A stretch of DNA of 64,000 nucleotides from Escherichia coli O157:H7 str. 2011EL-2287. Its GTDB lineage: Bacteria > Pseudomonadota > Gammaproteobacteria > Enterobacterales > Enterobacteriaceae. The position numbers were made by a program, and so were the translations under genes. The stretch lies in the NCBI GenBank assembly GCA_000614405.2, contig GCA_000614405.2_3612.1; one strand, 5' to 3'. Of this stretch, positions 9,501-57,052 are shown piece by piece. The notes under the pieces are model-generated. The model saw nothing but the letters and a program-made list of their open reading frames with translations, did no database searches and had not been told where the DNA came from. Every line of letters begins with the position of its first letter. Position 1 is the stretch's first letter.

Positions 9501-12202
9501 ACGCTGTTGACCCATACATAAATTTCGCAGCTTTGCATGCGAATATGGATGGTGCAAGGTATCCGTTCGACGTTCCAGTTGCCAATGGGTACAAACGTGT
9601 TGTGATGATCATTAAGTGCGACCTGATAGGTAAACAAGTTCTTGCAGAAAACGGGACATCCACACATCCTTTTGAGATCGCTCTGCACTATCAGTTTGCT
9701 GACTCACCTTTTGCAGGGGATAAGAGAATATCTGATACAGACGCACAGCGTTGTAAGAAAGTATTGTTGGGTGCAGGTTGGTGGTGGTATGAGTTTGATT
9801 TAACAGATAAGTTCACAGATGATACCAAGACTCTCACAGGTATCCGTCTGGATCTTGGTGAGAACATGCACAAAGCTGTTTGTGATGGCACCTACGGTGA
9901 TCCTACAGTATACTTGAAGTATGTCTCTCTTGAGCATCCAGAGGATGCCGTAATCGGTCCTAAACTGAAATTATTCGGCGCATGGATTGCCAAGGATAGA
10001 GTAGGTATGGGTAAGAAAGTGAGAGGATTCCTGATAGATGCAGGAACAGAGGACATGCTGGTTAATGCAGTGTGGCCTACGCTAGAAGGAACTGCCTACA
10101 ACAATGCAGCCAGGTCTATAAATTGGTTCAACATTCACAGAGCTATGTGGACTACCAACTGCTACTTGTGGAGAGAGCTCAACGATCAGGCCTTTGGCTT
10201 TAGTAACGGCAGAAGGATGGCGATCATCTGCTGGACAACACTGCAAAGATGTTATGACCATGACTACGAGATTGGCGGTAGAGCATGGAAAGATATCCGA
10301 GATAGAATCATATACAATTTTGCAGATGATAATGGTGGCGGGGCATATAACTTTGGCACAAGCCGACTTATCCACTTGAACGGATCTTCAGCCTACAAGA
10401 AAGAAGGTTACTCTGGATCCATGATCGAGTGGGGTCTGGTGAAAGATGCTCGCGTATTGATGGGCCAGCAACTTGCTGCCGCAATAGGTCCCAGCGCAGT
10501 GCAGTCGGTTAAACCAGCGTGGTTTGATATTCCATTGTGGTCACCCGGAACACCGGGAACTGCTGCAATCAACCCTACCACTGGGGATCTAGAAATCTCC
10601 TGGGAGGACTTGAAGCAGGTCGGCGGTTGGGACAAAACAGGGTATCAGGTTCAGTGGTGGAGAGCTGATGGATCTTTAGCTGCTGATGAGTTTGTTAAGG
10701 ACAATTTCTACACTATGTCCTCTGCAAAAGCACAGCAATTATTTGGTCAGGCCACTCCGTCAACAATCACCATGTCTATGTGCTGTAAAGACAACAGGAC
10801 TGGAGCTTTGGGGCCAAGGGTTGCTAAGGTTTTCTCAGGTATTAAATGGAATCTTCCTGTTCAAAGTGTTTCATGGAAGCAAATAGGTGATAACAAGCTG
10901 CTGGTTACCCCTGCCTGTCAGTTCAACGCAACTCTTAACGTTAATCCTGCTGTTGCGGCAAACTCAGCTAAAGCTTCTGACTTCTCTGTGTCTAACACCG
11001 CTATGGCAGATGTGAGGAAGATTGACACACTGAACGCCAGAATTACCTGTAAAAACACTTATGGCACATTCCAGATCATCAACAACTTCACAGATGCTGA
11101 TTCTAAGGTAGTGAGGACAGCAAGCCAGACTTTGAGTTTAGGAACTCTGGCCTATGCGGCCCTGATCACTGAACAGTCGGCAACACTCCAAGGAGGTGGT
11201 GTAGGCAAGTCCATTACAACACCTGTGTGGAAGCCAAATGAGTGGGTTGTGTTTGATTTGACTGTGGACTTCTCCAGCGATAATAACTGGACATGGGTAA
11301 GGAATTGTTTGTCACAGTTGATGGGCGGTCCAAGCTCCGTTAGTGATAGTCACGACTCTACTGACCCGAGTGTGTTCCAGGTAGGTAAAACTCACCCAGA
11401 GACTGGAGAAACGTTGCCTGACAGGAAGTATGCTTTGGTTTGCATCTCTTACGGAAAAGCAGATGTCACCTTCTCAGGGACACACACTTATAACGGAACT
11501 TACAACTTCTCAAGGAAGTATAGTCTCAAAGCAGGGAACATTATAGACGAGGTTGGTGTGCTGTATAATCCGGGCAACGGCATAGGGATTGTTGGTGGTA
11601 AACTGCAGATGCAGGAACCTTCTATTACCCCTTCCAACGTAGCCGGGATTAGAAAGACTTGGGAAAGTAGTAATACCAACATTGCAACAGTGGATGCCAC
11701 CACAGGACTGGTAACATTTAAAGCTACTGGGAATGTCACCATAAAGTTTGTAGTTACTGATGATGCAGGGCGCAAAACGTCTTCAACATCTTTTACTGTC
11801 AAACAGATGGCACCACAGTGGAGAATGTGGATAGGTACAGCAACAAACGGGGCATACCCTAATCCGGCAGGTACTTCTGGTATGAAGACTTTCTCTACAA
11901 GCAAACCGATGGAGTACGGCAGCGGTCCTAAGGTAGGGCAGATGGTGTACTTTGGTGCGTATATTCCTGAAATTATAGGGCTTCCGAGAAGTCAGCTTCA
12001 GTTGCTGTTTGGGGCTGGTGTTGACGATCTTGCCACTTTCGGGTATAGCGACAACATCGAGGCTGCAAGGAGTTCAGGATGGGTAGGGTTCAGAATGGAG
12101 CCTGGAAAGGAAGGCAGGATTCTAGGGACAGCCTCTATAGGTGTTATGTTCCCTGGTGACCAGCAGTATCGTCTAGAAGCCTACGCAACCTTTTCTCGTT
12201 AA
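6566..12202 (+). CDS. giant virion/tail-associated protein with Ig-like (Big_2-type) domain
   Basis: 1878-aa ORF; Ig-like segment (TWESSNTNIATVDATTGLVTFKATGNVTIKFVVTDDAG); N-terminal Gly-rich repeats; last gene of late operon. Confidence 0.55.
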   Translation: MLPIPLLKLGRHFLDKRGGIKELAVLSYPIDNSDGTSNTVSYVNSLAILFDDGQLNITGYNRFGECRTGDLDTINYPNEAAWNVDHVWRADRAFVIRTFDNKFFYIGCTAGLIGSEAAGGNDVCVREWTPLPEQIVTGLHLDTHPERLVEVMGGVNNTVWVIAAPEADGMLHLYGSGNNTYGSLHVDKSQHATPVKIGETSESPETGPWKNPRINCEVHDNSVIFGGPNGFWIAGYDFLRNNSKNTLVYPAEHVTLDQFKGIPVGETWKGFMCGPNGAIIATERMHKPDDQQLVNVFYGQDVWGDDTWRSLNITYTHEVIMARGYGTSGIFFNNGTKQYRGFSRNLCNDIGAQSANNSPRANFIHYRALATAKFVEQTEPVSWTESVYFQGIHREGFLGTFCVVNGKLWWSGIPRGSFSGSNNLFGGRLNSQGFTEIPENWYKNVPVDSWGIEDIFDVNGVSNVSNIYIGDTVKMKLKPQPEGATFIIDKIELVNAAGTVVTDANYQFSTNWNHGGANEVVVTQYNRNINRRGLYSIKITYHDKHGTGRTYTTRTLNWNTIVPAYPSNGKWHTVGRNKQFHVNDTVYFGLNGTQPAVEGDTSYMVRLHRMDAGSVTYDVTQEIYDQRRATYDNIVKTQALWEFNPNGKGGKMLQVNEQNGTSLTVHEHPDPWPDPGKPHPGARTLKIVSHDAGYFGIRWEATVRYVDGTTNNIGITLGGTSEDNSLKIAYTPRGISIDNMDVVRNGYGDVNVKVTLGEHLGGERIIMYAFDHDPRTNGTYANQAWSYLINAPEPNTKEFYYGMKRDVCKKTGTHDWIAICVKDERTAWDEPVNRWFIGIPTRSDKYVAEYIVCMGGTNLNMCWNEDVNKYSDYDYMRDYSCNLWFNQTTGYPPRQARVNPAIFTDTQVFLTKQANEVQTFKNNYDPNKWFYNCYGAYFWGPAELPDSGSCFEAATYGSDYIMGQVKKYKMIPGPETLGNAVDPYINFAALHANMDGARYPFDVPVANGYKRVVMIIKCDLIGKQVLAENGTSTHPFEIALHYQFADSPFAGDKRISDTDAQRCKKVLLGAGWWWYEFDLTDKFTDDTKTLTGIRLDLGENMHKAVCDGTYGDPTVYLKYVSLEHPEDAVIGPKLKLFGAWIAKDRVGMGKKVRGFLIDAGTEDMLVNAVWPTLEGTAYNNAARSINWFNIHRAMWTTNCYLWRELNDQAFGFSNGRRMAIICWTTLQRCYDHDYEIGGRAWKDIRDRIIYNFADDNGGGAYNFGTSRLIHLNGSSAYKKEGYSGSMIEWGLVKDARVLMGQQLAAAIGPSAVQSVKPAWFDIPLWSPGTPGTAAINPTTGDLEISWEDLKQVGGWDKTGYQVQWWRADGSLAADEFVKDNFYTMSSAKAQQLFGQATPSTITMSMCCKDNRTGALGPRVAKVFSGIKWNLPVQSVSWKQIGDNKLLVTPACQFNATLNVNPAVAANSAKASDFSVSNTAMADVRKIDTLNARITCKNTYGTFQIINNFTDADSKVVRTASQTLSLGTLAYAALITEQSATLQGGGVGKSITTPVWKPNEWVVFDLTVDFSSDNNWTWVRNCLSQLMGGPSSVSDSHDSTDPSVFQVGKTHPETGETLPDRKYALVCISYGKADVTFSGTHTYNGTYNFSRKYSLKAGNIIDEVGVLYNPGNGIGIVGGKLQMQEPSITPSNVAGIRKTWESSNTNIATVDATTGLVTFKATGNVTIKFVVTDDAGRKTSSTSFTVKQMAPQWRMWIGTATNGAYPNPAGTSGMKTFSTSKPMEYGSGPKVGQMVYFGAYIPEIIGLPRSQLQLLFGAGVDDLATFGYSDNIEAARSSGWVGFRMEPGKEGRILGTASIGVMFPGDQQYRLEAYATFSR

Positions 12203-12251: not shown

Positions 12252-12452
12252 TTAGTAATACTCCCAACATGCACCATCTTCAGACGGCTTGACGCGCTTA
12301 CCTTTATGGTCAACATAGGTATAGCCACAACCTTCACAAATAACAGGTGCTGCATAGCCTTCCTTCCACTGATCCTCAGTGATCAGACCTTCCAAATCTT
12401 TGCAGTCAAAGCCAAACAACTCTTCAGAGCAATCTTTACAAAAATCAGCCAT
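12252..12452 (-). CDS. zinc-ribbon protein
   Basis: CxxC ... CxxC cysteine pairs (CKDC, CEGC) in a 66-aa ORF. Confidence 0.45.
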   Translation of the reverse strand: MADFCKDCSEELFGFDCKDLEGLITEDQWKEGYAAPVICEGCGYTYVDHKGKRVKPSEDGACWEYY

Positions 12453-45145: not shown

Positions 45146-45454
45146 TACTTGAAAATTCCTGGCATATCAAGTATAAGGGGGATTTCTAAAATGGATTTCC
45201 TCCTTTTGATATTTCACCGGGCCGGATATTTTAAAATTCTTAGAAAATCAGAAAATGGATCGAAAACTAAAATGGATTTTTCAGAGTAGGCGCGACAAGC
45301 TGAATAACTCATCCTATCGTTTGCACCATATTCCAGACCACCATTATAGATTTCCCGCACATGCTTACATCTCGCTACTAGAACTTCCTCCACTTACCCT
45401 TGACCTTTTATAGCAATAATCCAACCACTATCTTGAAGTTGCGGTGCAGCTTTC

Positions 45455-45620
45455 CAGGTACTCGATCTGTTTTTCGTTTCAAAGATTGAATTTTCTGAAA
45501 ATTTTTCTCGATAAATTTCTCAGTACTCGATCTGTTTTTCGTTTTCTGAATCGGATTTTCTGGAAATCGCTCCGGCTCTTGGCCTAAACTTTTTGGGGAC
45601 GAAATCGATTTTTCGTTTTC
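45455..45620. repeat. direct repeats (CAGGTACTCGATCTGTTTTTCGTTT x2 plus related CGAAATCGATTTTTCGTTTTC)
   Basis: Near-identical 25-bp copies at 45455 and 45521; related copy at 45600; AT-rich non-coding context. Confidence 0.5.
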
Positions 45621-45747
45621 AGAAATGGATTTTTAAAATTTCTATATGGGAATATTTTAGTGGATACTATTTTATAGGAAATTGTTACGGAGGGTAATTA
45701 GCGTGCTAATTAAATTTATTAAATGCGAGGAGTTCTCATTTAGAATT

Positions 45748-46428: not shown

Positions 46429-46626
46429 ATGAACGCCTACGGAATTAAAGTACGTCGCAACACTCGCCAGGTGGTCACCAATCAAGTGATTTGCCGGGTG
46501 GATGTAACCATCAACAACGGGCAAGGCCTTTATAAATTTCGTCGCGGTCATAGCTATACCCTGCAACAGCTTAACCGTTGCGCCCTGACAAAAGGTCAGA
46601 TCAACCACTGGTTTAATAAAAAATAA
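46429..46626 (+). CDS. hypothetical small basic protein
   Basis: RBS AGAGGA; own promoter. Confidence 0.45.
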   Translation: MNAYGIKVRRNTRQVVTNQVICRVDVTINNGQGLYKFRRGHSYTLQQLNRCALTKGQINHWFNKK

Positions 46627-46628
46627 TG

Positions 46629-46657
46629 TTGACATATGGTCTGACACAAAATACACT
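46629..46657 (+). promoter_or_regulatory. sigma70-like promoter
   Basis: TTGACA-N17-TACACT upstream of 46690 gene. Confidence 0.5.
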
Positions 46658-46689
46658 GAAATCGCAAAAGACACTAAGAGGATAAAATC

Positions 46690-47088
46690 ATGAAAACCAC
46701 TACCTTTAATTTTGATAATGCGGACTTTTCTTTTTCTGATGTCAAGAACTGCCGCCGTGATCGTGGATTTTACAAGGCTTATAATCTGGTGGGCCTGGAC
46801 GATGACAATAATTTGCACGAAGTAGCTGAGATCCGGTATTATGCCGCCGCCAGTGGTAACACTCACTACTGCGTGTTTTGGATTCACGACAACAAGAACA
46901 ATAAGTACGGTTATACTGGCGGCAAGGCGAGCGGTCACGGTTACGATAAAGCTAACGCAGCACTTGAGAGTGCATTAAATGCTATGGGGATCACTGCCGA
47001 CGGCTGGATCTACGAAGAAGAGTTTTTGTCGGCACTTGCTGACCACCTGGGCTATAAAAAGCACATTGTGACATGCGCCCACGAATAA
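46690..47088 (+). CDS. hypothetical protein
   Basis: RBS AAGAGGA; own promoter. Confidence 0.5.
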   Translation: MKTTTFNFDNADFSFSDVKNCRRDRGFYKAYNLVGLDDDNNLHEVAEIRYYAAASGNTHYCVFWIHDNKNNKYGYTGGKASGHGYDKANAALESALNAMGITADGWIYEEEFLSALADHLGYKKHIVTCAHE

Positions 47089-47102
47089 AAATCATTGACA
47101 CG

Positions 47103-47130
47103 CTGCAAAATTTAAGTAAACTAGACACAA
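47103..47130 (+). promoter_or_regulatory. sigma70-like promoter
   Basis: TTGACA-N16-TAAACT then leader hairpin GGCGGGAA-TGT-TTCCCGCC. Confidence 0.5.
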
Positions 47131-47170
47131 AAGGCGGGAATGTTTCCCGCCAGCACAAAGGAAAAAGATC

Positions 47171-47575
47171 ATGAATAAGAACGTACGCCGCATCATGAAC
47201 GAACTGGCAAACGATGAAAAAATTATTGACATGCACTTAGTGAACATTTGCCGCCGTTGTGTAACCTATAACAACCGCGCCGCAAAAGCGCGTGAGATGA
47301 ACGCAAAAGGCACCTTAAAGCCCTTCCAGGTGGTGGTAAAGGCCATTAAAGATGTAGCTAATACGGCAAACCAGGTACAGGGGAACACCAACGAGAGTAC
47401 CAATATTGATCCGGCTTACATCATGAAACGGATCCGGACCTGCAAGAACAAAGAGCAAGTGTATAACGTCATAGACTGGTTGGATTCCATGGGCGACGTG
47501 GTTTATAATAGGTTTTCTGCAGCCATTGAGATCCAGCTAGACAGGTTGGACGGGAAAGTACTAAAAACTTATTGA
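47171..47575 (+). CDS. hypothetical protein
   Basis: RBS AAAGGAAAAAG; own promoter and leader hairpin. Confidence 0.5.
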   Translation: MNKNVRRIMNELANDEKIIDMHLVNICRRCVTYNNRAAKAREMNAKGTLKPFQVVVKAIKDVANTANQVQGNTNESTNIDPAYIMKRIRTCKNKEQVYNVIDWLDSMGDVVYNRFSAAIEIQLDRLDGKVLKTY

Positions 47576-47576
47576 G

Positions 47577-47623
47577 TTTATTTTTAGATGGCCTTGACTC
47601 CAGGGCCATCGATAAAGTAAACT
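47577..47623 (+). repeat. promoter-stem-loop repeat (PeSL-like) copy 1
   Basis: TTTATTTTTAGATGGCCTTGACTCCAGGGCCATCGATAAAGTAAACT; hairpin GATGGCC/GGCCATC with TTGACT in loop. Confidence 0.55.
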
Positions 47624-47655
47624 AATCTCAGTTAAGCGAAAAAGGGGGCTTTAAG

Positions 47656-47775
47656 ATGGGCACTACACGCCAATACACAAAGGTAACTATTATCGTCTGC
47701 GTTGTCGGTTACATCCTGGCGCAAATGTTAATGAGTAGCGCTAACAGTTTTGCAAAATTTTTCTTAAATTTTTAA
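47656..47775 (+). CDS. hydrophobic micro-protein (39 aa)
   Basis: Below ORF-track threshold; RBS AAAGGGGG; central hydrophobic stretch VTIIVCVVGYILAQML. Confidence 0.35.
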   Translation: MGTTRQYTKVTIIVCVVGYILAQMLMSSANSFAKFFLNF

Positions 47776-47803
47776 TTGACAAGCTAACTTAGATCGGTAT
47801 ACT
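47776..47803 (+). promoter_or_regulatory. sigma70-like promoter
   Basis: TTGACA-N16-TATACT; leader hairpin GGGAA-AAC-TTCCC. Confidence 0.5.
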
Positions 47804-47854
47804 TAAACCCGTAAACGGGAAAACTTCCCAGAACACACAAAAGGAGAAAACACC

Positions 47855-48196
47855 ATGACCACTATGACCGCCGCAGAAAAAGCTATTCAGGTTGCCGCAC
47901 TGAAAAAACAGATCGCAGACCTTGAGAACAAGATCGATACCTTTGAAATCGACGAGGACAAGTACGACGAAAACTATGATGAATGGTTAGACGAGATCTA
48001 CGGAGAAATCATGATCGGAAACATTTCTTTTCTTCCGTCGCGTATCCTCAAGGAGCTAGATCCTATCGCTTACCGCTGCGGATTTAGCGACTACATCGAC
48101 AGCCTGGATATTGAGGACGATGAAGAATACCAGGAATTACAGACAGAGTTAGAAGAAGCAAAAGAAGAGCTTGCGGAGCTGGAAGAAAACGAGTAA
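47855..48196 (+). CDS. hypothetical acidic protein
   Basis: RBS AAGGAGAAAA; Glu/Asp-rich C-terminal half. Confidence 0.5.
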   Translation: MTTMTAAEKAIQVAALKKQIADLENKIDTFEIDEDKYDENYDEWLDEIYGEIMIGNISFLPSRILKELDPIAYRCGFSDYIDSLDIEDDEEYQELQTELEEAKEELAELEENE

Positions 48197-48198
48197 GA

Positions 48199-48244
48199 TT
48201 ATTTTTAGATGGCCTTGACTCCAGGGCCATCAATAAAGTAAACT
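48199..48244 (+). repeat. promoter-stem-loop repeat (PeSL-like) copy 2
   Basis: Near-identical to 47577 element (single G/A difference). Confidence 0.55.
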
Positions 48245-48285
48245 TTATACTGTTAACACTGAACTAATGCATAGGAGTTAAAACC

Positions 48286-48531
48286 ATGGCAGCACTAATC
48301 ACCAAATATTATGCCCCTACCAACACCAAAAGCGCCCGTATCATGGTAAAAGGCTTCGGACGTAAAAAGGTTTACACCTGGGATTATGCCTTAGACACGG
48401 AAGACAACTACACCAACGCGATGACAGATTTTATTAATGAGCTGAACACGCGGATCTTGACAAATTATAAAATTACCGATATTGCCTATATAGGGGAAGG
48501 CGGGATCTGTTTTGTCGGTATCGTCAAATAA
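48286..48531 (+). CDS. hypothetical protein
   Basis: RBS TAGGAG. Confidence 0.45.
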   Translation: MAALITKYYAPTNTKSARIMVKGFGRKKVYTWDYALDTEDNYTNAMTDFINELNTRILTNYKITDIAYIGEGGICFVGIVK

Positions 48532-48532
48532 G

Positions 48533-48580
48533 CTGTTTTTTCGGTGGTCCTGGTAGCAGGGCCATCTATAAAGATAGTTT
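48533..48580 (+). repeat. degenerate promoter-stem-loop-like element
   Basis: GGTCCTGGTAGCAGGGCCATCTATAAAG shares GGGCCATC-ATAAAG core with PeSL-like repeats. Confidence 0.3.
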
Positions 48581-48606
48581 ATCAACACAATGAAAGGAGA
48601 AAGTAC

Positions 48607-48960
48607 ATGATCAGCGGGGCAAGTTTTATTATTGGCGCTATTGCTACGGCTTTAATTGTAAACAAGATCCAATCTAAAAACGAAAAAGAGAGCAACGCGC
48701 TCACAGAATACCCATTTTGGGTATTCAACGACAATGAAGACTACATTATCAAGTACAAGAATGAGAAGGGCGACCAGGTAACACCGCGACCGATCCCGGC
48801 TTACAAGATGCAAGAAACACTATACCGCCTAAAGGCTGGAGGCGCAAAAATCGTAGACTTTTGGGGATATGATTGCAAGGATCAGGAGGTTATAAAGCGC
48901 CGTATCCGGGCTATTCAGGCCAATATTGAAGTTAGCAAGGGGGGAATATATGAAGATTAA
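48607..48960 (+). CDS. membrane protein
   Basis: ATG after AAAGGAGAAAG RBS; N-terminal helix ISGASFIIGAIATALIV (ORF track start 48544). Confidence 0.45.
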   Translation: MISGASFIIGAIATALIVNKIQSKNEKESNALTEYPFWVFNDNEDYIIKYKNEKGDQVTPRPIPAYKMQETLYRLKAGGAKIVDFWGYDCKDQEVIKRRIRAIQANIEVSKGGIYED

Positions 48961-49147
48961 TTTTGAGAAGATTGTAAAGCGATCTCATGATTCCGAAGAG
49001 CTGCCGGAACGACGCCAGCGTAACAATAAACTGAATAAGCCGAAAAGATTTGGGAAGATCTGGCGAAATCACTATGATCGCAAATTACCCAGCCTGCTTT
49101 TGGAACGTGAACGACAAGCGGAACGATACCGCCACAAAGACAAATAG
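48950..49147 (+). CDS. small basic protein
   Basis: ATG after AGGGGGGAATAT; Arg/Lys-rich; overlaps upstream gene end. Confidence 0.35.
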   Translation: MKINFEKIVKRSHDSEELPERRQRNNKLNKPKRFGKIWRNHYDRKLPSLLLERERQAERYRHKDK

Positions 49148-49154
49148 CAACCAA

Positions 49155-49184
49155 CGCCCCGCCATTGTGCGGGGTTTTTTATTT
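49155..49184 (+). terminator. rho-independent terminator
   Basis: Hairpin CCCCGC-CATTGT-GCGGGG + TTTTTT. Confidence 0.6.
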
Positions 49185-49328
49185 CTATCCTACGAATAGC
49201 GCCCCTGGTTGGCCCCACAAACGCCACAAAAGCCCCTACCTATGCAATCCCCTTTATTAACCTGAAAACATCACCCAGGGCCGTTTTATGGTGTTAAAAA
49301 ATATCATTGACAGTGATTTTATTTAAAG

Positions 49329-49357
49329 CTTGACACCTTGGAATAGTCCGGATATAC
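49329..49357 (+). promoter_or_regulatory. sigma70-like promoter
   Basis: TTGACA-N17-TATACT upstream of 49394 gene. Confidence 0.5.
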
Positions 49358-49393
49358 TAACCACATCAAAGCAAGAAGGAAGGAGTAAACGCC

Positions 49394-49654
49394 ATGCGTA
49401 AATTAAAAAATTTTGATAAAGTTGATGTTGTCCTGAATAATTTTTACTACTGCAATAACAAGGCCATTTGGTGGCGTGATAGTTCCACCGATAAAGTCAA
49501 GGCGCGCTTTCTCCAGGGGCACTGGCAAGGCCGTCCAGTGATTAAAATCATGGGGCAATTGGTAGCGTTTAAAAATTGCCGCCGTGTTGATGACGTTGAA
49601 GAGATTTTAAGCATTTTGCGCCACAATAATTTAAAAAATAGTGTTGACAAGTAA
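49394..49654 (+). CDS. hypothetical protein
   Basis: RBS AAGGAAGGAG. Confidence 0.45.
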   Translation: MRKLKNFDKVDVVLNNFYYCNNKAIWWRDSSTDKVKARFLQGHWQGRPVIKIMGQLVAFKNCRRVDDVEEILSILRHNNLKNSVDK

Positions 49655-49671
49655 ATCTCGATAAGTATACT
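49644..49671 (+). promoter_or_regulatory. sigma70-like promoter
   Basis: TTGACA-N16-TATACT; leader hairpin GGCGGGAA-AAC-TTCCCGCC. Confidence 0.5.
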
Positions 49672-49728
49672 TAAACACACAGGCGGGAAAACTTCCCGCC
49701 ACTAACAAAGAAAATAGGAGAAAATATC

Positions 49729-50352
49729 ATGACCACCGTTAACATTACCACAGGTTACAATTTATCTTTCGACGTGCTGACCGATGAACAAAAAGAAAAA
49801 GCTATTGAAATGGTCCGCGAAAGAGAAGAACACAGCGGGGATAACTTTTTTGCAGAAAGTGTAATTGAAGACTATAAAGAACATATCTTTCCAGAGTATG
49901 GCCTTGAAGATACCAAGGTACATTGGTCCGGCTTTTGGTGCCAGGGCGACGGCGCGTCAATCAGTGCGGAAAACGTGGATTTAGAAAAATTCTTGCGTAA
50001 AGTCAAGTCTCTGACTAAATTCCGCTCAATTCGTCACTTGTTCGGCACAATGCACGATGGCGAGCTATCCGCAAGTGTTGAGCGTGATCCATATAGCCGC
50101 TATAGTCACGAAAATACTGTGAGCGGGTACATCGATACTACATGGCTAGACCTGACAGCCAAGCAAGAAAGTAAGGTTGAAGAGCTGGAAGAGTTGATCA
50201 CCGAGAACGTACGGGAACTATCCCGCAAGGTTTACGTAGACCTGGAGCAAGCTTATCTTGAACAATTTACTACCGAAAACCTGATCGGCCTTATCGAGGC
50301 CAATGATTGGCGGTTTGATGTGGATGAATATGGAGAGATGAGTTTTTCATAA
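49729..50352 (+). CDS. hypothetical protein
   Basis: 207-aa ORF, RBS TAGGAGAAAA. Confidence 0.5.
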   Translation: MTTVNITTGYNLSFDVLTDEQKEKAIEMVREREEHSGDNFFAESVIEDYKEHIFPEYGLEDTKVHWSGFWCQGDGASISAENVDLEKFLRKVKSLTKFRSIRHLFGTMHDGELSASVERDPYSRYSHENTVSGYIDTTWLDLTAKQESKVEELEELITENVRELSRKVYVDLEQAYLEQFTTENLIGLIEANDWRFDVDEYGEMSFS

Positions 50353-50360
50353 ATAAAGTG

Positions 50361-50388
50361 TTGCAATAATCTAAAAACCTGCTATATT
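50361..50388 (+). promoter_or_regulatory. sigma70-like promoter
   Basis: TTGCAA-N16-TATATT; leader hairpin GGGGCAA-GACG-TTTGCCCC. Confidence 0.45.
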
Positions 50389-50442
50389 AAAACTCAAGGG
50401 GCAAGACGTTTGCCCCCCACACAAAACAAAGAGGAAAACATC

Positions 50443-50823
50443 ATGAAAAACACTACTAAAGCTATTGACACCGTCATGTTTAACCTGGTTACCTTTCGCG
50501 AGGATATGAAAGATCTTCCACGTGAAACAGTGTGCGATCACATTGAAAACTATCGCAAACTAATCAAAGAGTTGCCTTTAAAACGTGATCAGTATGCGGC
50601 TAACGCCATGCTTAATGCCATGATCAAAAAGATGATCCAGTGTGATTTAACTCTGGCCTATGACTATGCGGGTGGTCGTTTTGCAGTATACAATCAGCCC
50701 GTGCCCGGTATGGGCACCACCGAAGAATTGCACGCGTTAAATCTGAAGCAAGATGTATGGGATAACATGCCCCGCGTGGTGGTGTGGGCAGAAAGCGGAA
50801 AGATTTACGGCGATAATTTTTAA
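50443..50823 (+). CDS. hypothetical protein
   Basis: ATG after AAAGAGGAAAACATC leader (ORF track start 50410 lies within the leader hairpin). Confidence 0.45.
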   Translation: MKNTTKAIDTVMFNLVTFREDMKDLPRETVCDHIENYRKLIKELPLKRDQYAANAMLNAMIKKMIQCDLTLAYDYAGGRFAVYNQPVPGMGTTEELHALNLKQDVWDNMPRVVVWAESGKIYGDNF

Positions 50824-50832
50824 TCAGGTAAC

Positions 50833-50860
50833 AGGCGGCATATTTGCCGCCTTATTGTTA
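50833..50860 (+). terminator. putative terminator hairpin
   Basis: AGGCGGCA-TATT-TGCCGCCT followed by TATTGTT. Confidence 0.45.
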
Positions 50861-50887
50861 AACAGAGTTGCAAAAGAGGTACATAGA

Positions 50888-51259
50888 ATGGAATTTATTA
50901 TTTTGGCTGTAGTAGTTGCCTTGTTCAACGCCTGGATAGCTGGCAAAATAGGTAGATCCGCTTTTCTATGGTTTGTTATATCTATTTTCCTGGGAGTGGT
51001 TGCAACCATTGTACTAGTTATCCTTGCAATTGTTGACAAGGATAATAATAAGAAGGGTAAAGTATTTTCCGACCTGTATGACGCCCAAACTTTTGTTAAC
51101 GCCTATTATAGTGATCTTCCGGTCTCCTTGCGCTGCAGCCTGGCGCAACAAGTTTTTGATGAGGCTAAAACCAGAGATCAAGCCCATGAGATATGTTTAA
51201 CTGAGGCGGATCGCCTATTTGAGAGGAATAGAAAATATGTGGGCCAGCCGTTTAAATAA
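50888..51259 (+). CDS. membrane protein
   Basis: ATG after AAAAGAGG; two predicted TM helices (ORF track start 50753). Confidence 0.45.
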   Translation: MEFIILAVVVALFNAWIAGKIGRSAFLWFVISIFLGVVATIVLVILAIVDKDNNKKGKVFSDLYDAQTFVNAYYSDLPVSLRCSLAQQVFDEAKTRDQAHEICLTEADRLFERNRKYVGQPFK

Positions 51260-51482
51260 TACCACGTTAATTAATCCCTTTAATGAAGATTTGAAGCCAG
51301 CCGCCTGGCGTGATGGATTCAATAACGAACGCTTTATTTTCAGGCCTGATCTTGAGGAATTTTATAACAATGGATCGAACAACGACAGAGATAATTTTTC
51401 TTGTGATGTGCGTGGTGATGGTACTCCTGGGGGACATTGTAAACCACGTCACTACTACCAGGAGGAAAGGGGGAGACGATGA
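51237..51482 (+). CDS. hypothetical protein
   Basis: ATG after AGAGGAATAG; overlaps 3' end of upstream gene; start uncertain. Confidence 0.3.
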   Translation: MWASRLNNTTLINPFNEDLKPAAWRDGFNNERFIFRPDLEEFYNNGSNNDRDNFSCDVRGDGTPGGHCKPRHYYQEERGRR

Positions 51483-51598
51483 CAACCAAGGATAAGCCCC
51501 GCACCGATAAGGTGCGCCAGGTTATGGTATGGCTTGAGATCATCGCCCTTGAAATATTGTTAGGGGTAGGAATGTACTTTATTGCTATAAGTAACTGA
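51479..51598 (+). CDS. hydrophobic micro-protein (39 aa)
   Basis: Below ORF-track threshold; ATGA overlap; RBS GAAAGGGGGAG; TM segment WLEIIALEILLGVGMYFIAI. Confidence 0.35.
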   Translation: MTTKDKPRTDKVRQVMVWLEIIALEILLGVGMYFIAISN

Positions 51599-51602
51599 TA
51601 AC

Positions 51603-51631
51603 GCCCCCGATCATGGGGGCTTAACTTTTTC
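51603..51631 (+). terminator. rho-independent terminator
   Basis: Hairpin GCCCCC-GATCAT-GGGGGC + TTAACTTTTT. Confidence 0.5.
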
Positions 51632-51653
51632 AAAAAATTTTTCTTCCAGGGTG

Positions 51654-51681
51654 TTGCAATCTGGTCCGCAATATGGATAAT
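51654..51681 (+). promoter_or_regulatory. sigma70-like promoter
   Basis: TTGCAA-N17-GATAAT; leader hairpin GGGGA-AACA-TCCCC. Confidence 0.4.
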
Positions 51682-51737
51682 AACAATCAACGGGGAAACA
51701 TCCCCACCAACACAAAAACCAGAAAGGAGAAACAAAA

Positions 51738-51938
51738 ATGAGCAACAATATCCGCGTTATTAACTTCAAAAAAGAAGAAAAAATTGCCGTGCTGATTGAC
51801 GGTCAAGAAATCTTCAAGGGCGACTATGAAGATCATCAAACGGCGATTAGTATCACTCGCGTGATTGGTTACCATAATTTTTACCCCCAAGGCGCTGAGG
51901 CGGCGGTTAAACGAATCAAAGAGATTGTAGGCCTGTAA
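51738..51938 (+). CDS. hypothetical protein
   Basis: RBS AAAGGAGAAA. Confidence 0.45.
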   Translation: MSNNIRVINFKKEEKIAVLIDGQEIFKGDYEDHQTAISITRVIGYHNFYPQGAEAAVKRIKEIVGL

Positions 51939-51939
51939 A

Positions 51940-51985
51940 ATTTATTTTTAGATGGCCTTGACTCTAGGGCCATCAATAAAGTAAA
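51940..51985 (+). repeat. promoter-stem-loop repeat (PeSL-like) copy 3
   Basis: TTTATTTTTAGATGGCCTTGACTCTAGGGCCATCAATAAAGTAAAT; near-identical to copies at 47577 and 48199. Confidence 0.55.
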
Positions 51986-52031
51986 TTTAAACCCTGTTAA
52001 AATACCACGCAGTTAACAAGGAGTGATAGAC

Positions 52032-52331
52032 ATGTTTATCCAGGCTAATAATCTTTATTTCTTTGATGGTCAGATCGTAGATGGTGTGGAAGTGGAGATC
52101 ACTGGGTGCCCTGGTGGTCAGGCTATGACTTTTCGGAATAATGCCTTTGATGATTCTCATATCGTTATGAGAATGGAAGTTACAAAGCTGGACGACAAGA
52201 AAACGCTCATTGACTATTCCGTGAAAGATCATCCAGACTACCACATGATCTATGGTGATTTGTGCATTGTTGACCGTGACAAGGTGGGCGGCATTGTGAT
52301 CGCTATTGTGAACGATGTTTTCTCTGTATAG
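52032..52331 (+). CDS. hypothetical protein
   Basis: ATG after AAGGAG (ORF track start 52023). Confidence 0.45.
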   Translation: MFIQANNLYFFDGQIVDGVEVEITGCPGGQAMTFRNNAFDDSHIVMRMEVTKLDDKKTLIDYSVKDHPDYHMIYGDLCIVDRDKVGGIVIAIVNDVFSV

Positions 52332-52389
52332 TTCCGGCAAATGATGCAAAATAAGGCCCCTAGCAGGGCCTGCAGCGATATAATCACAT

Positions 52390-52425
52390 AAAGGCCATGC
52401 GGTTGCATGGCCTTTATTATTTTGG
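52390..52425 (+). terminator. rho-independent terminator
   Basis: 10-bp stem AAGGCCATGC-GGTT-GCATGGCCTT + TATTATTTT. Confidence 0.65.
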
Positions 52426-52471
52426 CGTTACAACGGCCTCCAAGGCGCTTAAAAATTTTTTAAAGAAGTAC

Positions 52472-52500
52472 TTGCATCAAGCCCTACAATATGGATAATA
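52472..52500 (+). promoter_or_regulatory. sigma70-like promoter
   Basis: TTGCAT-N17-GATAAT; leader hairpin GGGGGC/GCCCCC. Confidence 0.4.
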
Positions 52501-52552
52501 GTACGTGTCAGGGGGCGGCCCCCAATCATTAACAGAAACAGGAGTTAAAACT

Positions 52553-52837
52553 ATGGCTATTGTTACCGCTGGCGATGTAGTAGAAATGGAAGCAAAATAC
52601 TTAAAAGCGGGTATGCATATCCTGCGCAACGATCTTGAACTGGTCTTGACAATGGTTGACTATAACCCAGGGCAAGATTATCCAAGTGTTGACTACTTTT
52701 TTGAGTATGTTGATGAAGAGTTGAAAGAGGATGAGGCCTATTGCGGTGAGTTCTGCAACTTCTTTTGTCCTGATGAGGTTGTAAAGGTTATCTATCAACC
52801 TGGCGTAGCTTTCCCGCTGCACGCTATCAATAAATAA
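52553..52837 (+). CDS. hypothetical protein
   Basis: ATG after ACAGGAG (ORF track start 52505). Confidence 0.45.
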   Translation: MAIVTAGDVVEMEAKYLKAGMHILRNDLELVLTMVDYNPGQDYPSVDYFFEYVDEELKEDEAYCGEFCNFFCPDEVVKVIYQPGVAFPLHAINK

Positions 52838-52899
52838 ACCTGGCGGGGCCGAAAAGGCCTCCGCCTGAAATTATGAAAAATAAAAAGAGGCAAACTATC

Positions 52900-53130
52900 A
52901 TGATGGAACAAATTAAACGCGCTGAGGCTATTAATGGCAATGTGATCTATTTTGTCAGCAATAACGAAAAAGGCGTACCATATGCGGCGGTAATAGTACA
53001 GCCTGACGGCGATTATTGGTTTACTGTGTACGGCGCTTACTCTTTTGGGCGTCCAGTGCATGATAAAATTTTGAAAGTAGCGAACCCTACCGGGAAGAAT
53101 ATCACAGCAGAAAAATTTTTTGAAAAATAG
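52900..53130 (+). CDS. hypothetical protein
   Basis: ATG after AAAAGAGG (ORF track start 52873). Confidence 0.45.
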   Translation: MMEQIKRAEAINGNVIYFVSNNEKGVPYAAVIVQPDGDYWFTVYGAYSFGRPVHDKILKVANPTGKNITAEKFFEK

Positions 53131-56854: not shown

Positions 56855-57052
56855 AAGGCAACTATGCAAACGAATGGCATGGCGCGACGGAGTCGCGACA
56901 TAATATAAAAGCAGTAACCATCACCCCCGTGATAGTTTGTCTGCAATCTATTAATCAGATCATAGTTGCCTTGTATTTAGTTAATCATGACATAACAAGC
57001 AAGGCAACTATAGATCTGCTAATAGTTGCCCTGCTTTTATATTATGTCATAG
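56855..57052. repeat. nested palindromes / inverted iterons (AGGCAACTAT x4 alternating; 18-bp inverted repeat)
   Basis: AGGCAACTAT at 56856 and 57002, inverse at 56962 and 57023; GACATAATATAAAAGCAG (56893) inverted at 57031; GCAAACGAATGGCATGGC repeated at 56865 and 57127. Confidence 0.5.

Follow-up and report, generated by a model that had tools for sequence, protein, structure and literature searches.

The window analysed here, a 64,000-nt stretch from the assembly of Escherichia coli O157:H7 str. 2011EL-2287, belongs to an rV5-like myovirus of the genus Vequintavirus, and four copies of a short hairpin-forming repeat stand between small genes in its early region. We propose, with about even confidence, that these elements are composite boundaries between early gene cassettes, combining an RNA hairpin, a putative promoter and a substrate for recombination in the manner of the PeSL (promoter early stem-loop). 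A PeSL consists of an AT-rich tract, a sigma70-like promoter and a stem-loop, and is placed between small open reading frames (ORFs) at indel junctions (PMC2839356; PMC4122927).

A 45-nt pattern is found on the plus strand at 47577-47621 (0 mismatches), 48198-48242 (1 mismatch) and 51941-51985 (1 mismatch), and gave 0 matches in dinucleotide shuffles. The first-pass annotation, made from the sequence alone, had described near-identical repeats lying just after stop codons and before small genes, and this description was borne out; of the starts it gave, 47577 was right, and 48199 and 51940 were each one base off. The degenerate fourth copy that it had pointed out is likewise real, occupying 48531-48579 with 67% identity in register to the repeat. 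The copies begin 1-2 nt past a stop codon, the upstream ORFs ending at 47575, 48196, 48531 and 51938, and the next ATG downstream stands at 47656, 48286, 48607 and 52032, respectively. The genes that they separate are small and of unknown function, with homologues dispersed among unrelated phages, and all belong to different PHROG families, on which ground an origin by segmental duplication was rejected. The four hairpins, with minimum free energies (MFE) in kcal/mol and covariance-model scores in bits, are as follows.

47575..47623, plus strand: copy 1, two helices, MFE -26.2, z -6.6, 81.2 bits; lower stem 47575-47584 paired with 47614-47623, upper stem 47587-47596 paired with 47601-47610, loop ACTC; its first base is the final base of the TGA stop of a 134-aa gene.
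48196..48244, plus strand: copy 2, same hairpin as copy 1, 82.4 bits; its first base is the final base of the TAA stop of a 113-aa gene.
48528..48582, plus strand: copy 4 (diverged), MFE -28.2, z -7.05, 72.3 bits; 13-bp lower stem, 2x3 internal loop, upper stem GGUGGUCCUG/CAGGGCCAUC with two G.U pairs, loop GUAG.
51938..51988, plus strand: copy 3, following the TAA stop of a 66-aa gene, 78.2 bits; its closing pair is G.U owing to a C-to-T change.

As plus-strand RNA, each copy forms a lower helix 10-13 bp long, whose 5' arm is U-rich and starts at the stop codon and whose 3' arm is A-rich; above it come an internal loop of 2x3 nt and a GC-rich upper helix of 10 bp that closes on a tetraloop. 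The upper helix, GATGGCCTTG/CAGGGCCATC, comprises 10 bp including one U.G pair and closes on a 4-nt loop. The 7-bp stem GATGGCC/GGCCATC reported in the first-pass annotation does exist but understated the fold, being the core of a two-helix structure of about 20 bp; TTGACT, which had been placed in the loop, is half in the stem and half in the loop. The plus-strand folds of the four copies range from -21.5 to -28.2 kcal/mol (z -5.1 to -7.1), and those of the minus strand are weaker (z -2.0 to -3.1), with a covariance-model score half that of the plus strand. A sliding 64-nt fold scan of the whole window returned too many hits at or below -19 kcal/mol to discriminate. The covariance model, built from 13 copies and searched with filters off, recovered from the window the four copies and nothing else.

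Covariation was examined with 52 additional plus-strand copies from rV5, Gotham, navn, FFH2, A51.2, rV5_ev168, ime, ECP26, D1 and five metagenomic or viral contigs, giving 30 distinct copies from 15 genomes and contigs, the window included. Standard pairs fill 98.8% of the 600 pair cells and 100% of those in the upper helix; when the 3' partners are slid by 1-3 columns, pairing falls to 35-57%, and the pairing pattern of the 30-sequence set was already apparent in the 13-sequence set. In the lower helix, both partners have changed in four pairs (AU/GC/GU, UA/CG, UA/GU/AU and AU/UA); the variable pairs of the upper helix, also four, all change via G.U, and pair 7:53 covaries within copies 1-3, as does pair 10:50 among the copy-4 orthologues. 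Because G.U pairs become A.C mismatches on the other strand, and because the minus strand earns half the bits, the hairpin is a structure of the plus strand in single-stranded form. The selected object is this single-stranded structure, most simply mRNA.

Copy 4 is present in all genomes examined, where its fold is preserved by compensatory and wobble changes. It carries CCTGGTAG where copies 1-3 carry CCTTGACT, lacks TTGAC and has no sigma70 match. Since this copy keeps the fold without a -35 hexamer, the hairpin is maintained independently of any promoter; the structure, not the promoter, is the feature common to all four copies. The first-pass annotation had also held that the repeats are conserved beyond the needs of a promoter, a claim that comparison of orthologues did not support: conservation of the elements is 0.93-0.96, about that of coding sequence and no higher, though clearly above that of the spacer just downstream (0.76-0.83).

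Two canonical intrinsic terminators close the transcription units in which the copies are found.

49156..49181, plus strand: GCCCCGC...GCGGGGT followed by TTTTTT, closing the unit with copies 1, 2 and 4.
52388..52427, plus strand: 13-bp stem with a T-rich tail, closing the unit with copy 3.

Because the units close at these terminators, the hairpins lie within polycistronic early transcripts, between cistrons. The elements themselves are not reported by the terminator scan, and no U-tract follows the hairpin on either strand, the 3' flank being (G/A)AUAAAGUAAA, also given as (G/A)ATAAAGTAAA, and that of the minus strand TAAAAATAAA. A reading of the elements as canonical terminators was rejected on these two grounds, and the missing U-tract, together with the position of the copies inside units that end in canonical terminators, argues against the idea that the stem-loop supplies the terminator half of a PeSL.

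The 5.5-kb region around the elements shares 96.9% identity with Escherichia phage navn and 93.8% with rV5, and matches 124 phage records; the element alone matches 121 records, nearly all at three places apiece. A complete 137-kb relative has exactly 4 copies, all inside 4.4 kb of the early region. No match to the covariance model was obtained in the early regions of Salmonella phage SSBI34, Klebsiella phage FKP3 and Serratia phage ChuuTotoro, and across the records and relatives searched the element family was encountered solely in the genus Vequintavirus. An exact 17-mer scan of IMG/VR found two genuine rV5-like contigs, together with 14 single matches in unrelated sequence that are due to chance. 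A search for related loci with the 81-aa gene gave 2 viral and 4 metagenome loci, and further diversity was taken from GenBank records. An Rfam scan of 46500-53000 at E up to 10 returned sub-threshold chance matches only, the best one overlapping an element being the rhtB small RNA (23.4 bits against a gathering score of 55, E=1.6). The element is not mentioned in the rV5 genome paper, and we found no earlier description of it for rV5-like phages in the literature.

Seventeen of the GenBank records (MG0656xx) are labelled 'Campylobacter phage' and are 93-96% identical to rV5-like phages of E. coli. This host label is doubtful; the record of phage D1, the one among the seventeen that was examined, is flagged UNVERIFIED. 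Two of the MG0656xx assemblies start at or right beside copy 1.

Copies 1-3 contain a sigma70-like motif, TTGACN-N18-TAAAYT, matching the consensus at 9/12 positions, and copy 4 has no match.

47594..47623, plus strand: putative sigma70-type promoter of copy 1, TTGACT at 47594-47599, 18-nt spacer, TAAACT at 47618-47623.
48215-48220 and 48239-48244, plus strand: putative promoter of copy 2, TTGACT and TAAACT, 9/12 match.
51958-51963 and 51982-51987, plus strand: putative promoter of copy 3, TTGACT and TAAATT, 9/12 match.

A T-rich tract, TTTATTTTTA, precedes the motif in copies 1-3, about where an UP element would lie. TTGAC is invariant in intact copies 1-3, the single departure being one degenerate copy 1, and loop positions 3-4 vary (ACTC, ACTT, ACGC, ACAC). 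PhagePromoter calls in the Gotham record overlap copies 2 and 3; the rV5 record annotates none. The usual early promoters of the phage differ from the motif, having the form TAAAAAATANTGTTGACA-N16/17-TATACT, and so does the promoter consensus that has been reported in a related genus.

A second regulatory unit recurs in the same region, at 47776-47841 and 49644-49709 and also at 47095-47151, 50361-50419 and 51654-51711. It consists of a near-consensus TTGACA-N16/17-TATACT promoter, a GC-rich hairpin in the 5' untranslated region (UTR; e.g. GGCGGGAAAACTTCCCGCC) and a leader of the form ACACAAA...AGGAGAAAA...ATG, and its two best copies are 74% identical across 66 nt.

The contribution of the repeats to gene loss is seen at the cassette between copies 1 and 2, which is made up as follows.

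47624..48195, plus strand: the cassette, consisting of a 39-aa gene, a promoter and a 113-aa gene.
47656-47775, plus strand: the 39-aa gene.
47776-47803, plus strand: strong promoter P47776, TTGACA-N16-TATACT, followed by a 5' UTR hairpin.
47855-48196, plus strand: the 113-aa gene.

Three relatives, IMG/VR contig 2051223002_000007, phage ime and phage ECP26, lack the sequence corresponding to 47624-48244, a 621-bp unit that comprises the 39-aa gene, P47776, the 113-aa gene and one repeat unit. In all three a single chimeric element remains, flanked on the left as copy 1 is and on the right as copy 2 is; in the contig, positions 26-264 match 47385-47623 and positions 216-700 match 48196-48680. 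These junctions show, at the level of genome comparison, that natural relatives have lost the 621-bp cassette through unequal exchange between copies 1 and 2. The closest non-deleted left flanks of the three genomes are those of SKEA (97.8%), Gotham (98.4%) and rV5 together with A51.2 (96.2%), and their closest right flanks are those of the window (98.0%), SKEA (98.3%) and again SKEA (95.9%), a pattern that fits repeated or inter-genomic unequal crossovers. Identical loop alleles, and a G/A variant of the internal loop, appear at different loci in different genomes, and this recurrence suggests exchange between repeat copies.

The shape of the hairpin invites comparison with the RNase III processing signals of phage T7. 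RNase III substrates typically span two helical turns. Where there is an internal loop, only one strand is cut, and the product keeps a 3' hairpin that protects it; the cut lies about 11 bp from the tetraloop, recognition is tuned by a distal box (UA/UG) and by a proximal box of 4 bp, and the enzyme is indifferent to the sequence of the tetraloop (PMC1540722). The signals R1.1 and R1.3 of the T7 early region were characterised by Nicholson's laboratory (PMC1540722). The R1.1 upper stem, AAGGUCAUUC-GCAA-GAGUGGCCUU, is located between the promoters phi1.1A and phi1.1B. The double-stranded part of our element measures 20-23 bp in two coaxial helices, or about two turns, and below its 10-bp upper helix an A x N mismatch precedes the 2x3 internal loop, in agreement with the cut-site arrangement as far as geometry alone is compared. 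The distal and proximal boxes were mapped onto the natural R1.1 upper stem and then onto the hairpin of the copies. Counted from the tetraloop, the pairs of copies 1-3 read as follows.

Positions 2-3: U-A and U.G, the canonical distal box.
Position 5: C-G, as in R1.1.
Position 8 (proximal box 1): U-A, not the preferred pair.
Position 9 (proximal box 2): A-U, acceptable.
Position 10 (proximal box 3): G-C, not the preferred pair.
Position 11: mismatch at the internal loop, as in natural R1.1.

The resemblance to a T7 R1.1-type signal is real but partial. Both are about two turns long, have a tetraloop on an upper stem of 10 bp, carry U-A and U.G as the second and third pairs from that loop, and have their internal loop some 11 bp from it; both also lie between cistrons, just past a stop codon and next to promoters or, here, putative promoters. 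They differ in having no sequence homology and in proximal-box positions 1 and 3; moreover, the putative promoter of the element is of the host sigma70 type and lies inside the hairpin, not beside it.

In the mechanism that we favour, each copy presents a conserved plus-strand hairpin of about 20-23 bp that begins at the upstream stop codon, inside polycistronic early transcripts. In read-through RNA this hairpin would most likely serve, in the manner of RNase III signals of the T7 R1.1 type, both for processing between cistrons and for stabilising 3' ends. The internal loop is predicted to be cut on its 3' side, and the upstream mRNA would then end in the GC-rich hairpin of 10 bp. Copies 1-3 would in addition serve as moderate sigma70 promoters with the T-rich tract upstream, from which new transcripts are predicted to start immediately beyond the 3' end of the hairpin. 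Being direct repeats of 49 nt, the copies are substrates for homologous recombination, through which variants appear to have moved among the three loci.

A more specific version of the composite boundary, which we put forward only tentatively, treats the 49-nt unit as dual-coded: the same sequence would be a sigma70 promoter as DNA and an RNase III-type hairpin as read-through RNA, insulating cassettes and serving as a portable homology linker, and PeSL-style shuffling would have arisen independently in a non-T4-like lineage. As part of this doubtful proposal, each copy would cut and cap the upstream message, restart transcription downstream and act as the linker for cassette loss and gain. 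Promoters inside hairpins are also seen in two distant relatives, Salmonella phage SSBI34 and Serratia phage ChuuTotoro, where sigma70-like examples occur at 11920-12005 and 12355-12435 of one locus (L021) and at 12300-12425 of another (L023). One of them reads TTGACA-GGGGCGGTAAAACGCCC-CATAAT with a stem-loop in the spacer, and the others have a CATAAT -10 hexamer in the loop of a 14-17-bp stem. Promoter-in-hairpin composites may be general to the subfamily, and related phages with promoter boxes inside hairpins may share the dual-coded logic.

Several observations weigh against the composite reading, and they touch each of its three components. For the RNA hairpin, the covariation mostly splits copies 1-3 from copy 4 and represents few independent events; copy 1 of Gotham has lost GGGCC through a 5-nt deletion, which breaks the stem while the flanking genes remain intact, and at least that copy is therefore dispensable. 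For RNase III processing, copies 1-3 have the unfavoured pairs U-A and G-C at positions 8 and 10, and copy 4 is without the UA/UG distal box, C-G replacing U.G at position 3. For the promoter, the 18-nt spacer is suboptimal and the lower helix takes up all six -10 bases in pairs, the variable -10 base covarying with its partner, so that the promoter could be an accident of an A/U-rich helix; the U.G pair that gives the first T of TTGACT is accounted for equally well by an RNase III distal box. Our literature search on rV5-like phages found no transcript-end, transcript-mapping or cleavage data.

The same holds for recombination. In a mosaic test, a two-state hidden Markov model applied to all genome pairs over 46990-52320 gave 240 distinct identity-block boundaries, and these are not enriched at the elements (25 overlap, against 23.3 +/- 5.1 expected, P=0.40). 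Two of the three gene-content indels of the region lie away from the elements. The first is an inserted gene of 365 bp at 52324-52344, the second a 540-bp cassette of small ORFs at 49307, found only in the 137-kb viral contig (L025 6010-6600; window 49307-49312), both junctions of which fall at TTGACA -35 hexamers of the promoter region upstream of an 86-aa gene. The expectation, following from the first-pass annotation, that breakpoints of gene gain and loss coincide with the repeats is thus upheld for the three relatives that lost the cassette between copies 1 and 2 at a junction inside a chimeric element, and is not upheld by the mosaic boundaries or by the two indels elsewhere. The repeats may recombine simply because they are alike, and not because recombination is a selected function of theirs.

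The leading alternative is that the element works at the RNA level alone, as an RNase III site between cistrons or as a barrier to exonucleases, and that the promoter likeness of copies 1-3 arises by accident from the U.G-containing apical stem and the A/U-rich lower stem. The fold is found in all four copies and the -35 hexamer in three only; no -10 base is left unpaired, and where the -10 hexamer varies between C and T, the base opposite varies between G and A in compensation (pair 7:53). The usual early promoters and the consensus of the related genus look different, and read-through would express the downstream genes anyway. Against this stand the loop, in which A and C at positions 1-2 are fixed in intact copies 1-3 while positions 3-4 are free, a pattern that fits TTGACN better than a tetraloop of indifferent sequence, and the T-rich tract at the location of an UP element. 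We regard this explanation as possible rather than probable.

Less likely, in our judgement, is a classical PeSL, that is, a sigma70 early promoter whose overlapping stem-loop terminates or attenuates upstream transcription. Arbiol 2010 lists PeSLs whose stem-loop overlaps the -35 box as a subclass and also showed terminator activity for one stem-loop (PMC2839356), and the position of our element, its AT-rich upstream tract and the cassette deletion fit such a device. What follows the hairpin does not fit: the sequence there is (G/A)AUAAAGUAAA, with no U-tract whichever strand is read, and the element is missing from the output of the terminator scan; real U-tract terminators stand at the unit ends, and copy 4 keeps the hairpin without a promoter.

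The likeness to PeSLs nevertheless extends to several features of the composite boundary that we favour. PeSL cassettes are known in the T4-like phages RB49/phi1, PST/T4 and nt-1/KVP40 (PMC2839356; PMC4122927), and the case of RB49 ORF192 versus phi1 defined PeSL-mediated shuffling (PMC2839356). Like them, the element recurs in the intergenic spaces of an early, plastic region whose small genes have no known function, and combines an AT-rich tract, putative sigma70-like -35 and -10 hexamers and a stem-loop able to overlap the -35; a cassette flanked by two copies is reduced to a single chimeric copy in relatives, as in RB49 ORF192 versus phi1. It differs in belonging to the Vequintavirinae and not to a T4-like lineage, in numbering only 4 copies per genome instead of many, in a putative promoter that is non-consensus, has an 18-nt spacer and is missing from one copy, and in a long two-helix hairpin that has no U-tract, is conserved at the RNA level and looks like a processing signal, not a terminator. 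The PeSL assignment of the first-pass annotation accordingly stands for the intergenic stem-loops with a sigma70-like motif and for the cassette loss at a chimeric element, and is weakened by the absence of a -35 from copy 4, the low copy number and the missing U-tract. The assignment is thus partly supported, and we regard the elements as a small PeSL-like family in a non-T4-like phage.

A DNA-level operator or recombination site, in which a phage DNA-binding protein recognises the GATGGCC/GGCCATC inverted repeat, is very unlikely. The perfect 7-bp inverted repeat would suit such a protein, as would the restriction to four clustered sites per genome and the 16-nt 3' arm AGGGCCATC-N-ATAAAG, which is invariant in the four copies apart from one A-to-G change in one of them. 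Changes in the 5' arm, however, keep G.U pairing and not DNA symmetry, the minus strand has half the covariance-model score, covariation of the lower helix is not predicted by a protein half-site model, and no DNA-binding protein was identified among the neighbouring genes.

REPs (repetitive extragenic palindromes) of E. coli resemble the element in being extragenic palindromes after stop codons in operons, which protect upstream mRNA from 3' exonucleases and are substrates for recombination, and differ in having hundreds of copies, a link to the RAYT transposase and another sequence and fold. A mobile miniature repeat of the REP or MITE (miniature inverted-repeat transposable element) type spreading through the genome, to which a short extragenic palindrome beside stop codons might point, was rejected as highly improbable: exactly four copies hold the same fixed, orthologous positions in every genome examined, the element was found within the genus only, the viral-contig scan yielding rV5-like contigs and single chance matches, and there are neither target duplications nor a transposase.

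If the composite reading is true, the PeSL idea, in which the regulatory boundaries of cassettes double as recombination linkers for the gain and loss of small genes, extends beyond T4-like phages, and the element is a compact case in which a promoter and an RNA processing structure together constrain a single sequence. The rV5-like group matters through its wide use in biocontrol of E. coli O157 and its presence in the BASEL collection. The repeats predict sites of spontaneous deletion in therapeutic or engineered rV5-like phages and mark junctions at which cassettes could safely be inserted.

Three further features of the window were noted. A 65-aa ORF at 48950-49147 overlaps the end of the preceding gene and matches Pfam PF08200 (bacteriophage T7 protein 1.1; E=1.5e-11); the record of phage A51.2 likewise annotates it as T7 protein 1.1. 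Just upstream of the early gene block, 45451-45641 contains three head-to-tail 52-nt units, 62-79% identical and spaced by 65 and 74 nt, for which an iteron-like or regulatory role is possible. At 56948-57050, two long and very stable hairpins (25-26 bp, MFE -28 to -32 kcal/mol) occur with direct repeats in the stretch of lowest GC content of the window (0.386), near a reversal of GC skew.

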